From Dictyostelium discoideum (Eukaryota), in assembly GCA_000004695.1 (NCBI GenBank), contig CM000154.2, positions 1-64,000 of the forward strand: a DNA stretch of 64,000 bases, given 5' to 3'. A model generated the notes under the pieces. That model saw nothing but the letters and a program-made list of their open reading frames with translations, was not told where the DNA came from and did not search any database. Position numbers and translations under genes: made by a program. Below are positions 3,070 through 20,108 of this stretch, piece by piece (the first letter of the stretch is position 1; every line of letters starts with the position of its first letter).

Positions 3070-4182
3070 CTATTTCACTGTAGAAGCTAGAAATTCATTT
3101 AATAAAAATGTTACATAGGAAAAAGGAAAGCTTTTATATAATTTTCTATATCCTTGAGTTTTTACTAAATCTACTGCTATTGAGATTGGATTAGTTAATA
3201 ATAAATTAACAGAATTACCAAGATAACGTTGAGCGAAAAAATAAGAGAATTGAGAACGAACTGTTTCACATGGGAGGAGAGCCAATGTTAATAAAAAGGT
3301 TTTAGCGTATATTGATTTAATTATGAGTGTTGAATTTCTCCAAAATGTTGATTTTGGATTCTCTAATGATTTCGACTCGACATATTCAATTAATTTATTT
3401 ATGGTACCCTTTAAAAGTCTACTTGTAGCATACAATCCAACTGATGAAATAAAAGTGTAGGCTACATTTTTGAAATTGAATTTTCCAGTTACCCCATCTT
3501 GGCAAAGTACAATTTTTTTAATTACTTCCAAAAATGATAATTTGTTGGCAGATTGTATATAACAATCAAGTGGGAACACAACAACAAATGATGAAAAACA
3601 CCATAAAATTTCATCTGTTAATTTACCCATTGTTGAGAATGGATAGGCGAATTTATCCTTCAATATAAAAAGTGGTTGTAGTGATACTGCAATAGTTGAA
3701 GGAACAATAGCTTGTGCTAAAATGATTTTACCTAATGAAAATGCATTATTATTTCTAATGAATGATTGAAGAACTCCTAGTGAATTAGAATGACTTGGTG
3801 TTGAATTTATAACAAGTGAGGCTATTTCAAATGGTGCTGCTAAAGTTCCCATAATTGAGAGTAGGGTATGATTTTTTTGATTTAATGATTTAAAGTATTC
3901 AAGTTCTAAGGTGACCATCTCATCATGTATTTCCCTATCATAATAATCCCTTAATCTTTTATCTGAAATTACTGAATATGCTGCATCTAAACTCTCTGCT
4001 ATTTTTTTATCATTTTCGAAATTACTCCTAACTTGTTCATACGAATGAGCAATTTTATCAATAGTATCTTCTTTTTTAACTCCTAAAAATCTATAAAGTT
4101 CACCACATTGACATTCATGTGTTGCATAAAATATTTTTACTTTATCTTCGTCAGTAATTGGAAAAATTTGGGTATCTTTCAT
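3070..4182 (-). CDS. Membrane protein with an N-terminal J-like domain lacking the HPD motif (ELYRFLGV...AYSVISDKRLRDYYD) and a hydrophobic, probably transmembrane, C-terminal half.
   Basis: 370-aa intact ORF. J-domain helix I/IV consensus is present, but the HPD tripeptide is replaced by NFENDKK. Several hydrophobic segments; PLD and GxxxG-like motifs. Confidence 0.55.
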   Translation of the reverse strand: MKDTQIFPITDEDKVKIFYATHECQCGELYRFLGVKKEDTIDKIAHSYEQVRSNFENDKKIAESLDAAYSVISDKRLRDYYDREIHDEMVTLELEYFKSLNQKNHTLLSIMGTLAAPFEIASLVINSTPSHSNSLGVLQSFIRNNNAFSLGKIILAQAIVPSTIAVSLQPLFILKDKFAYPFSTMGKLTDEILWCFSSFVVVFPLDCYIQSANKLSFLEVIKKIVLCQDGVTGKFNFKNVAYTFISSVGLYATSRLLKGTINKLIEYVESKSLENPKSTFWRNSTLIIKSIYAKTFLLTLALLPCETVRSQFSYFFAQRYLGNSVNLLLTNPISIAVDLVKTQGYRKLYKSFPFSYVTFLLNEFLASTVK

Positions 4183-10148: not shown

Positions 10149-15933
<5,785 letters not shown>

Positions 15934-15975
15934 TCTTCTTGTAATAATTGATGATGTTGGTCTTGTTGGTGGTGG

Positions 15976-15976
<1 letters not shown>

Positions 15977-16058
<82 letters not shown>
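15977..16058 (-). repeat. (GAT)n on plus, read (TCA)n on minus: in-frame poly-Ser upstream of the annotated HECT start.
   Basis: 27 GAT units. The minus frame stays open from 16224 to 15934. Confidence 0.8.
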
Positions 16059-16060
<2 letters not shown>

Positions 16061-16079
16061 GCTACTGGTGTATGACTGG

Positions 16080-16110
<31 letters not shown>

Positions 16111-16259
16111 GGTGGTTGAATTACTACTATTTGTTGTTATTTTTTTTCTATTACTAGATATTGGTTTATTTGGTGTTGATTCAGTACTGTTGCTAATTGA
16201 TCTATTTATTATTATTTTAAAAAATTATTTTTTAGTTATTAATTATTTAATTTATATTA

Positions 16260-16291
<32 letters not shown>

Positions 16292-16536
16292 AGTATGGGA
16301 AAAAAAAAAAATTTATATAATATTATATGTGGAAATTAAATTATATGGCATTTATAAAAATATGTAAACATAAAAAAAAATAAATAAAAATAAAAATTGG
16401 TTTAATTTTTATACAAAATTTTATTATTGTTTTGTATTATTAAATTGGGGTGTGTATTTTTTTTATTTTTTTTTTTTGTCAAAAAATTAAGAAAAATAAA
16501 AAAATAAAAAAATAATTTAATATAAAAAAAAAAAAA

Positions 16537-16589
<53 letters not shown>

Positions 16590-16975
16590 AAAAAAAAAAA
16601 AAAAAAAATTTAATTTAAATTTTTAAAGTTGACGATAATAAAGAACAAAACCCAATTCAATTAAAATTTTATTTTTATATGGGTGTGTTTATGTGGTTAT
16701 ATATTTAATTTTTTGGATTTACATTGTGCGAAATTTAAATAAAATGAATAGAAAAAATAAACAAAAATAATAAAAATAAAAATAAATAAAAAAAATTAAA
16801 CAAAACAAAACAAAAAAAAACAAAAATTAATAAAATAAAATAAAAAAAAAAAATTAATAAAATAAAATAAAAAAAAAAAATAAATAAAATAAAATATATT
16901 TTTACTACTTGAATAATATTTATAAAAAATAAAATATAAATCATTTTATTTGAGAGGTTATTATAATTTACTTAC

Positions 16976-17304
16976 ATCTTTTGTTTTTTAGTTCTTTTTG
17001 ATGATTTTTGTTGTTCTTCTTCTATTTGTTTTTGTAATGCCGCTGCTTGGGATCGAGTTTTTGGTGGTGAAATTGGAGTTGTTGTTGGAGTTGTTGTTGG
17101 AGTTGTTGTTGGAGTTGTTGTTGGAGTAGTTGTTGGTGTAGTGGTTGGTGTAGTGGTTGTTGATGTAGTGTTCCCACTACCTTTTTTTGGTTGTTGATTG
17201 ATTATTGACTCTTTATTAATTTCGTTTTCCTTATTTATTGTGGTTGTTGCCGTTGTATTTGATTTGGGAGTTGGTGTTTTACGCTTTTTATTACCAGTAG
17301 ACAT
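16976..17304 (-). CDS. Basic Lys/Thr-rich exon (MSTGNKKRKTPTPKS...TTTP x7...KRTKKQK). Proposed to be the 5' exon of the HECT ligase gene, spliced over a 774-nt intron (16975..16202); otherwise a separate 110-aa gene.
   Basis: The ORF ends in AAG AT|GTAAGT, a canonical donor leaving 2 nt. Acceptor aataaatag at 16203-16202 supplies 1 nt and lands exactly in the HECT frame, which is open from 16201 to the ATG at 15933. Human TRIP12 has a similar basic Ser-rich disordered N-terminus. Confidence 0.4.
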
Positions 17305-17865
17305 ATAACAAAGTATATGTAATTAAACTATTGTTTAAAATAAATTGTGAAATAGTGAAAAAAATTCTCTCTAAATTATTATTTAATTTAATTGCTGCTA
17401 CTGCTGCTGCTGCTGCTAAATTTAATGTTTAAAATATAAAAAATGAAAAAAAAAATATATTTTTTTAATAATGTTGGTTTTTAGTTTTATTTGTTTTCTG
17501 TTGTTGGTTATTTTATGAAAATGAGAGAGTGGGGTTGATAAATAATAAGAAAAAAAAAAAAAAAAAATTAATTTTTTTTTTTTCAAATTATTTTTTTTTT
17601 TTTTTTTTTATTTTAATTTTTTTTTTTTTTTTTGATTTTTTTAATTTATTTTTATACATATATATATAAATCGTTATGAATATATTAAAAAAATAAAAAA
17701 AAATAAAAAAAATAAAATAAATAAATTTTTAGGGTTTAAAAAAGACGAAGTAAATAAAAAAAAAAAAAAATAAAATAAAATAAAAAAAAATTTTATGATA
17801 ATAAAAAAAATAAATAAATAAAATATTAAATAATTATTACAGTTGTTTAAAAAAGAAGAAAGATA

Positions 17866-17926: not shown

Positions 17927-18320
17927 TAGTTTTTTAATTATTATTATTATTATTATTATAATAGCTCTTTAATATACATTTCTCTTTTTTTAGTAATCTC
18001 TTTTAATTTTTTAAATTTTTCTTATTTTCATAAATACCATTTTTGGTATTTTTTCTTTTCCAAAAATTTGGATAATATTTTTACTATTATTGTTTTTATT
18101 AATTTTACCTAAACCTAATTTATTATTCTTTTTTTCAACTTTTATTGGATTAATTTTACTTTGATTATCCTTACCTAAACCTTCACCATCGGACCAATTC
18201 ATTTTTTTAGTAATAATTTTATAATCAACATTCAAAGGTAATCAAGATGATATAAATCTTTTTAAAACAGAACCTTCTTTAGTTCTTTCACATAAAATTA
18301 GAGTTGTTGATTATTGACGT
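17927..18320 (-). pseudogene. Truncated, degenerate duplicate of the 3' part (G-patch region) of the gene at 19093..19836.
   Basis: 17941-18320 is about 95% identical to 19076-19480, including the preceding (ATT)n. The copy keeps the MNWSDGEGLGKDNQSKINPIKVEKKNNKLGLG ORF (18011..18235) but has stops and divergence upstream. Confidence 0.6.

Positions 18321-18801: not shown

Positions 18802-18892
<91 letters not shown>
18781..18892. repeat. Intergenic (ATT)n microsatellite, about 36 units, between the duplicated segments.
   Basis: Direct reading. Confidence 0.9.
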
Positions 18893-19092
18893 GACACTAC
18901 TATTATTCATATTAATCTTCTTGGTTGGGTGCTCGTAATTAAAAAAATAAAAAAAATAAAAAATTCCTATAATAAAAAAATAAATAAAAAATTACTATAA
19001 TAAAAAAAAATTATTTAAAATTTATTATTATTTTTTATTATTTTAATTTTTTATTATTTTTTTTTTTATTGGTATTATTATTATTATTATTA

Positions 19093-19836
19093 TTATAATA
19101 GCTCTTTAATATACATTTCTCTTTTTTTAGTAATCTCTTTTAATTTTTTTAAATTTTTCTTATTTTCATAAATACCATTTTTGGTATTTTTTTCTTTTCC
19201 AAAAATTTGGATCTTATTTTTACTATTATTATTATTATTATAATTAATTTTACCTAAACCTAATTTATTATTCTTTTTTTCAACTTTTATTGGATTAATT
19301 TTACCTTGATTATCTTTACCTAAACCTTCACCATCGGACCAATTCATTTTTTTAGTAATAATTTTATAACCAACATTCAAAGGTAATGAAGATGATATAA
19401 ATCTTTTTGAAACAAAACCCTCTTTAGTTCTTTCACATAAAATATGAGTTGTTGATGATTGATGTTCAATTTTCTCTGTATTAAAAATTTCACTTTCACA
19501 TTGATCACAATAAAATGATTTTACTTTTGTTATATTGGTTGTTGTTGTTGTTGTTGTTATTATTTTTCCAGTAGTTCTTGATAATTCTTCACCAGAACCA
19601 ATATTATTATCAATTAATAATGGTTGTTGTTTTGATATTTCTGGTAATCTTTTAAATAATCTTTCTGGTAACTTTGTATTTAATGAAGAGGTTGAAGTTT
19701 TATAGAAATTTGAAATATTGAAACCTTCTTCTTCTTCTTTTTCTTTTTTTAATTTATCAATATCAATATTGTTATCAAAATTATTTTCAAATAAATCTTC
19801 ATTGGTTATGTAACCTCCTGATATAAATCTTTTCAT
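19093..19836 (-). CDS. G-patch domain protein with a matrin/U1-type C2H2 zinc finger.
   Basis: 247-aa ORF. Finger FYCDQCESEIFNTEKIEHQSSTTH (C-x2-C-x12-H-x5-H). G-patch motif KMNWSDGEGLGKDNQGKINPIKVEKKNNKLGLG. Confidence 0.7.
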   Translation of the reverse strand: MKRFISGGYITNEDLFENNFDNNIDIDKLKKEKEEEEGFNISNFYKTSTSSLNTKLPERLFKRLPEISKQQPLLIDNNIGSGEELSRTTGKIITTTTTTTNITKVKSFYCDQCESEIFNTEKIEHQSSTTHILCERTKEGFVSKRFISSSLPLNVGYKIITKKMNWSDGEGLGKDNQGKINPIKVEKKNNKLGLGKINYNNNNNSKNKIQIFGKEKNTKNGIYENKKNLKKLKEITKKREMYIKELL

Positions 19837-20108
19837 CTTTTTTTAGTTGAAAAGTAAGAATTATTTTGCCATACATAAAGATTTCGACGATGGGTGGTAT
19901 ATTATATTTTTTTTTTTTTTTTTACAATTGTAAGTTTGTTAATTTTTTTTTTTTTTTCTATTGTTTTTTTTTGAAATTTAATGAGGGAAGGGCGATATTT
20001 TTTTTATTTTTTTTTTTGTAAAAACGAAGGACGCTTATGTGGCTTTTTACACAAATTATTTTAAATTTGTCAAAATACCGAGTGTTTTTTGGGAATATTA
20101 AATTAAAT

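Follow-up and report, generated by a model that had tools for sequence, protein, structure and literature searches.

The analysed window is a stretch of 64,000 nucleotides (nt) from Dictyostelium discoideum (assembly GCA_000004695.1, contig CM000154.2, positions 1 to 64,000 of the forward strand), in which a minus-strand gene was identified by Pfam searches as the TRIP12/UPL3/Ufd4-type HECT ubiquitin ligase of this species. An earlier note on this DNA had proposed that the gene probably has an additional 5' exon, separated from the rest of its reading frame by an unusually long intron of 774 nt. The features of the gene in the order of its transcription are the following, a slash marking a splice junction:

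17305..17545, minus strand: probable 5' leader of the HECT mRNA, lying 3' of an oligo(dT) run, without ATG, its transcription start site being presumed
16976..17304, minus strand: coding part of exon 1, 329 nt, that is 109 codons plus 2 nt (phase 2)
16970..16975, minus strand: 5' splice site GTAAGT, phase 2, in the context AT/GTAAGT, its first G at 16975
16202..16975, minus strand: predicted intron 1, 774 nt, GT...AG, 9% G+C and 56% T
16202..16203, minus strand: 3' splice site AG in the context aataaatag/ATCAATTAGC, exon 2 starting at 16201
15934..16201, minus strand: extension, with which exon 2 begins, comprising 268 coding nt and no ATG
15931..15933, minus strand: internal Met codon (...RRMS...), conserved in four species
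15066..15933, minus strand: remainder of exon 2, encoding TRIP12-type TPR/ARM repeats (PF25579 TPR_TRIP12_N, E = 2e-38)
14978..15065, minus strand: intron 2, 88 nt, phase 1, GTAAGT...TTTAG
10149..14977, minus strand: last exon, encoding the C-terminal HECT domain, with the stop codon at 10151-10149

The spliced model thus has three coding exons, at 17304-16976, 16201-15066 and 14977-10149. Splicing of 16975 to 16202 together with removal of intron 2 gives a product of 2097 amino acid residues without an internal stop, the junction codon being ATA, and translation from Met 15933 gives 1898 residues. The HECT domain (PF00632, E = 1.6e-77 in the Pfam search) was found in the final 310 residues, with its catalytic Cys within the context SCTNYIKLPDYS (...SVMSCTNYIKLPDYS...), and the ARM/TPR region yielded 944 orthologue matches at E values of 1e-10 or below.

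The minus-strand open reading frame (ORF) that contains exon 1, 17304..16972, encodes 110 residues with an isoelectric point (pI) of 10.4 and 18 Lys plus Arg. The exon 1 peptide is basic and Thr-rich, reads MSTGNKKRKTP...PPKTRSQAAALQKQIEEEQQKSSKRTKKQK, includes the segments MSTGNKKRKTPTP...SPPKTRSQAAALQKQ...SSKRTKKQK, and carries two motifs resembling a nuclear localization signal (NLS), KKRK at residues 6-9 and KRTK at residues 103-106. The 3' end of the ORF reads ...AAA CAA AAG ATG TAA and contains, as the earlier note had described, the sequence AT/GTAAGT, so that the TAA stop codon of the 110-residue frame lies within the donor and the G of the preceding ATG starts it. This GTAAGT matches the donor consensus of the species and is accompanied by a drop in G+C content from coding to AT-rich sequence, like that seen at other apparent donors in the window.

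Read back from Met 15933, the HECT frame stays open as far as 16224, that is over 291 nt, with no in-frame ATG, and an open frame of this kind requires a start further upstream. The frame is therefore open as had been claimed, the 268 nt given for it being the distance from the acceptor and not the length of the open stretch. Outside the repeats of 16224..15934 the HECT frame is the single open one, since the other two contain stops there, and the G+C content of this stretch is 33-36% as compared with 7-14% in intron 1. Taken together, the single open frame, the contrast in G+C content, the missing ATG and the drop in G+C at the donor are beyond chance. The extension encodes ISISNSTESTPNKPISSNRKK, poly-Thr(13), poly-Ser(28) and ...TRPTSSIITRR; both homopolymers had been noticed before, the Ser run now being counted as 28 rather than 27 residues. 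The first 199 residues of the protein have a pI of 11.0, 25 Lys plus Arg against 7 Asp plus Glu, and 52% Ser plus Thr, and the N-terminal region of about 200 residues is basic, of low complexity and probably disordered.

The AG at 16203-16202 restored the reading frame in the 2+1 manner that had been predicted: the AT of exon 1 and the A at 16201 form ATA (Ile), position 16200 is in frame with the ATG at 15933, and the TAG that holds the acceptor AG is outside the HECT frame. A second in-frame AG is present at 16194-16193, 9 nt downstream of the first; its use would also give Ile at the junction (AT+C) and a product of 2094 residues. The description of the intron as unusually long was borne out, as its 774 nt are about five times the mean intron length of 146 nt reported for D. 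discoideum (PMC3188802). In another D. discoideum annotation, GCA_054883475.1, the total intron length of the neighbouring genes, computed for each gene from the gene ranges and product lengths in the tables, is mostly 0-377 nt, with one exception of about 1.2 kb. Rfam and tRNA scans of intron 1 gave no matches.

The syntenic annotated loci of sister species were located with the neighbouring proteins as anchors, and four species, namely D. discoideum, D. firmibasis, D. citrinum and D. dimigraforme, were compared:

D. discoideum: called from the exon-1 ATG, 2097 residues, exon 1 329 nt, intron 774 nt (763 nt in GCA_054883475.1), extension 268 nt, donor AT/GTAAGT
D. firmibasis: called from the homologous exon 1, 2006 residues, exon 1 323 nt, intron 587 nt, extension 151 nt, donor AT/GTAAGT
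D. citrinum: called from the homologous exon 1, 2160 residues, exon 1 266 nt, intron 946 nt, extension 163 nt, donor AC/GTAGGT
D. dimigraforme: called from the homologous exon 1, 2137 residues, exon 1 287 nt, intron 674 nt, extension 148 nt, donor AT/GTAAGT

The orthologues bore out the proposed structure, with exon 1, the position of the phase-2 donor and the acceptor region all kept in D. firmibasis, D. citrinum and D. dimigraforme. The exon 1 lengths are 2 mod 3 and the extension lengths 1 mod 3 in all four species, the donor being at the same codon and in phase 2 throughout; the intron lengths vary between 587 and 946 nt, the sequence being AT-rich and under no frame constraint. In other words, the flanking exons show coding-type indels, in multiples of three, and intron 1 does not. 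The exon 1 peptides are conserved across the four species in the segments MS[TS]GNKKRKT..., ISPPKTRSQAA(A)LQKQIEEE... and KSSK.KK.K. The acceptor context ...tag/ATCAATTA... is kept in D. discoideum, D. citrinum and D. dimigraforme, and that of D. firmibasis is ...acag/AACTGAATC; from the acceptor to the conserved ...IITRRMS... no in-frame ATG occurs in any of the four. Global percent identity of exons versus introns proved uninformative in such AT-rich DNA and was replaced by frame arithmetic and counts of conserved runs.

A more distant comparison was provided by a contig of 6205 nt (Ga0256797_1001123, hereafter L001), the single match obtained when JGI metagenome contigs were scanned with a profile of the N-terminal ARM region. 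It comes from a dictyostelid relative (71% identity over 414 matched N-terminal residues) and encodes the whole protein as one uninterrupted ORF of 1903 residues, with the N-terminal sequence MDKSSRKRKATSS...TPKTSFIRTRSQAAAAAASSP...KQPVKKIKTSSNTSTPISKSKGK...TPITRRRS...NKRKTMSNKQSSEDINSGETG. Its first approximately 178 residues match exon 1 and then the extension in the same order, the extension corresponding to residues ~115-178, and the part that follows is colinear with the body of the window protein, MSSHQKPSEEINSGQT; the equivalent of Met 15933 is an internal residue. Both N-termini start with M....[KR]KRK, with KRK at residues 7-9, and share the same order of elements, the 7-mer TRSQAAA being followed by KK.K.S..STP and then by the conserved Met. 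An exact common 7-mer such as TRSQAAA was obtained in 26 of 5000 shuffles, and the alignment of exon 1 with L001 (z = 2.8, reached in 23 of 2000 shuffles) is modestly above shuffles in what is a low-complexity region. A tblastn search of the L001 N-terminus against the window gave no match when composition was corrected for; with the correction off, exon 1 scored highest for residues 1-125, aligned start to start, other low-complexity regions coming close to it. Judged by this colinearity, the HECT protein of L001 carries a homologue of the 110-residue ORF in direct in-frame fusion, with no intron between the two.

The structure is also that of existing annotations. In GCA_054883475.1 (CM142511.1) the HECT gene is called from L003:18970. 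This position is the ATG of exon 1, with atactttgttat in front of it just as in the window, and the product of 2097 residues has the length predicted by the 16975/16202 splice. This length fits the acceptor at 16202 and does not fit that at 16193. The covered DNA of the gene differs from the window only by 11 nt of poly-T and two substitutions at 16577-16616, within the intron, which is accordingly 763 nt in that assembly; the run may be polymorphic in length, or the homopolymer may have been misread in sequencing. Comparison of gene range and product length disclosed nothing of substance that differs between the two models, apart from the intron being 11 nt shorter, and from the length and the start coordinate we infer that the GCA_054883475.1 product is the 2097-residue model residue by residue. 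The models of D. firmibasis (GCA_036169595.1), D. citrinum (GCA_054859325.1) and D. dimigraforme (GCA_054859025.1) are likewise called from the homologous exon 1. For D. firmibasis the annotation was produced by MAKER, which was supplied with genome-guided Trinity transcripts (mRNA coverage of 1576x) and the D. discoideum UniProt proteome (PMC11193728), and its model hence rests on transcripts, on protein evidence from AX4, or on both. Since exon 1 is part of the gene in at least four public annotations, the long gene model is already public and is not new.

On the basis of the conserved phase-2 donor, the frame-preserving indels, the extension that lacks ATG and is conserved as protein, and the intronless fused orthologue, we accept the model in which exon 1 is joined across the 774-nt intron to the HECT gene, with a probability of about 0.93 that applies jointly to the whole gene model and to 16975..16202 being a canonical GT-AG spliceosomal intron. 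Several observations weigh against it. They include the conservation of the internal Met and the presence in the intron of conserved blocks that resemble a promoter, as described below; 63 nt of the GCA_054883475.1 gene lie outside the covered loci. An exact look-up of the 2097-, 2094- and 1898-residue models and of the 110-residue ORF found none of them recorded, although the neighbouring proteins were; a search of metagenome contigs with the DNA of the spliced junction gave no match, and a search of the protein collection with the junction peptide gave no candidates. The negative look-up is uninformative, because the 2097-residue product evidently encoded in GCA_054883475.1 was missed as well, and the missing entry looks like a gap in the index and not like a different model. 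A word-indexed protein search with the ARM region returned fragments of at most 614 residues and no Dictyostelium protein, and one with the 617-residue spliced N-terminus was swamped by low-complexity words.

Alignment of the four species revealed eight single-copy conserved blocks in intron 1, within the span 16338..16748 of the minus strand:

16748-16734, minus strand: conserved block
16732-16720, minus strand: conserved block
16705-16682, minus strand: conserved block AACCACATAAACACACC, C-rich
16665-16626, minus strand: conserved block TTTAATTGAATTGGGTTTTGTTCTTTATTATCGTCAACTT
16495-16480, minus strand: conserved block
16457-16434, minus strand: conserved block, C-rich
16429-16396, minus strand: conserved block with the TATA-like TGTATAAAAAT
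16360-16338, minus strand: conserved block TTTTTATAAATGCCATATAATTT (TATAAATGCCATATAAT), TATA-like, with oligo(dT) runs after it

Conserved columns reach a density of 36% both in intron 1 and in the upstream promoter and leader region, and the motif TGTATAAAA of the 16429-16396 block is also conserved in the upstream promoter. These blocks possibly represent an enhancer or an internal promoter, and those at 16429-16396 and 16360-16338 (TATA-like) and at 16705-16682 and 16457-16434 (C-rich) are put forward, tentatively, as candidate promoter elements. Two of the eight blocks are TATA-like and two are C-rich blocks of the ACACACC type. Long first introns that carry regulatory elements are a general eukaryotic pattern; the first intron here resembles them, on sequence grounds, in being about five times the mean, in being long in four species and in having blocks at a promoter-like density. 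The blocks may thus offer a modest lead for work on the regulation of the gene.

The same spacer can be read as the boundary of two tandem genes, one for a 110-residue basic protein with its own TAA and a poly(A) signal at about 16950, and a HECT gene that starts at Met 15933, has its promoter within the 774 nt and carries the GC-rich open stretch as a repeat-rich 5' untranslated region. The spacer does have a length typical of Dictyostelium intergenic regions, and within it are TATA-like motifs, extended runs of oligo(dT) and, ~26 nt past the TAA, an AATAAA; Met 15933 is conserved and in an A-rich context, and P0051, a predicted dictyostelid orthologue, starts at its equivalent. However, the phase-2 donor that holds the TAA is kept in four species, even as AC/GTAGGT in D. 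citrinum, the indels in exon 1 and in the extension all preserve the 2+1 arithmetic, the extension is conserved as protein and free of ATG in every species, L001 carries both parts in one ORF, four annotations call a single gene and the 110-residue protein is among those with no record, so that two separate genes are barely credible. A lesser departure from the accepted model, in which splicing would occur mainly at the AG at 16194-16193 and give 2094 residues lacking Ser-Ile-Ser, draws on the frame being kept and on an AG being present there also in D. citrinum. It is improbable given that the AG at 16203-16202 is the first past the A/T-rich tract, that the annotated product has 2097 residues and not 2094, and that D. 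firmibasis and D. dimigraforme have no AG at +9, the latter having an in-frame AG 15 nt downstream.

The conserved internal Met and the promoter-like intron blocks make a second, shorter isoform possible beside the long one. A promoter within intron 1 would in that case give a shorter mRNA whose first AUG is Met 15933, and hence a 1898-residue isoform without the basic NLS-like N-terminus. Such an arrangement would account for the TGTATAAAA motif and for the TATAAATGCCATATAAT block with its oligo(dT) among the eight single-copy blocks, for the promoter-like density of conserved columns in the intron, for the conservation of the Met even in the intronless L001 and for the intron staying long in every species; in addition, all three frames are free of ATG from the TATAAATG block down to Met 15933 in each of the four species. 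The absence of ATG is, however, not significant (probability of no ATG 0.41-0.67 per species in shuffles), the blocks might just as well serve splicing or act as enhancers of the upstream promoter, and the Met is conserved also in L001, where no intron is present that could contain a promoter. The production of both forms is accordingly regarded as rather unlikely, though clearly less remote than the two alternatives above; if it does take place, one gene would give proteins of 2097 and 1898 residues, possibly differing in localisation.

For the accepted long model the following course of expression is proposed. A promoter upstream of about 17545 would give a pre-mRNA with its first AUG at 17304, from which the spliceosome would excise the introns of 774 and 88 nt, so that the basic exon of 109 codons would be joined to the Ser/Thr-rich extension and the ARM/HECT body to yield the 2097-residue protein. 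TRIP12 and UPL3 are nuclear. By analogy with them, the basic N-terminal ~200 residues with KKRK and KRTK (of the K-K/R-x-K/R type) may direct nuclear or chromatin targeting.

The protein shares with TRIP12 (human), UPL3/KAKTUS and UPL4 (plants) and Ufd4 (yeast) the C-terminal HECT domain and the N-terminal ARM/TPR repeats, as well as a basic, Ser/Thr-rich low-complexity region ahead of the repeats; unlike them, it contains long poly-Ser, Thr, Asn and Gln tracts. A WWE domain is a feature of metazoan TRIP12 proper. None was found in the Pfam scan of exons 2 and 3, which places the Dictyostelium protein closer to the UPL3/Ufd4 architecture than to metazoan TRIP12. Literature searches for a description of a Dictyostelium TRIP12 or HECT gene gave nothing useful.

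The earlier note had further likened the basic, Ser-rich extension to the N-termini of TRIP12 orthologues, which held for composition; the similarity in sequence was not significant. Of 65 non-redundant orthologue N-termini, about half carry three or more Lys or Arg in residues 2-12, as in METRSRKRAEA and METRGNRKRKV. When exon 1, the extension and the junction were each compared by shuffling with the N-terminus of P0001 (a EukProt transcript), z was below 2 throughout, and a start-anchored position-specific scoring matrix built from the 65 N-termini ranked exon 1 7th of 889 and Met 15933 10th, with no discrimination between them. The motif TR[SA]Q[AT]A was not used across orthologues, as it is too rare and occurs also in mid-protein. 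The likeness to TRIP12/UPL3 from outside the Dictyostelia is thus compositional only, and the argument from the TRIP12 N-terminus is suggestive, the decisive evidence being the comparison within the Dictyostelia.

Any database that starts the gene at Met 15933 would lose about 200 N-terminal residues, including the only NLS-like motifs, and where such a truncated model is in use, tagging, knockout and localisation work on the Dictyostelium TRIP12/UPL3 orthologue would be misled. The practical gain is small, since the annotations of D. discoideum (GCA_054883475.1) and of three sister species are already long. Predictions for other dictyostelid orthologues may share the 5' truncation, for example P0051 (1576 residues), which starts at the Met homologous to 15933 and from which 36 residues are absent at the position of intron 2; its gene model probably misses the first exon and is mis-spliced.

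In the four-species alignment the leader contains a conserved CAACCCCACTC (17537-17527), and a block of 26 nt directly before the start codon, 17330-17305, is identical in all four. The sequence at 17527-17537, CAACCCCACTCTCTC, stands right after the oligo(dT) run and is conserved in the four species, and L001 has CACCACTCTCT at 56-67 after an oligo(dT) run of its own. This leader motif, common to 17527-17537 of the window and 56-67 of L001, may mark a transcription start region or may be due to chance. Upstream of the coding sequence D. discoideum and L001 are otherwise not alignable, so that the common CCACTCTCT may be fortuitous. A (GCA)n repeat of about eight copies occurs at 17393-17417 in the otherwise AT-rich, ATG-free leader.

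Other genes of the window were recognised by exact protein matches, which place it on chromosome 5 of D. discoideum AX4:

3070-4182: DDB_G0287215
19093-19836: DDB_G0287251, a G-patch gene
farther along the window: veg110, choline dehydrogenase and glycine dehydrogenase

Between DDB_G0287251 and the HECT promoter, a minus-strand ORF of 74 codons at 18011-18235 was found to encode a G-patch domain (PF01585, E = 8e-9, above the curated cut-off), and it is not called in GCA_054883475.1. It has no ATG at its start and may be an unannotated exon or a small gene. The G-patch gene beside the HECT gene (18825-19861, and its orthologues in L003-L006) is modelled inconsistently across annotations, its product having 247 residues in AX4, 273 in GCA_054883475.1, 252 in D. 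firmibasis, 348 in D. citrinum and 189 in D. dimigraforme.

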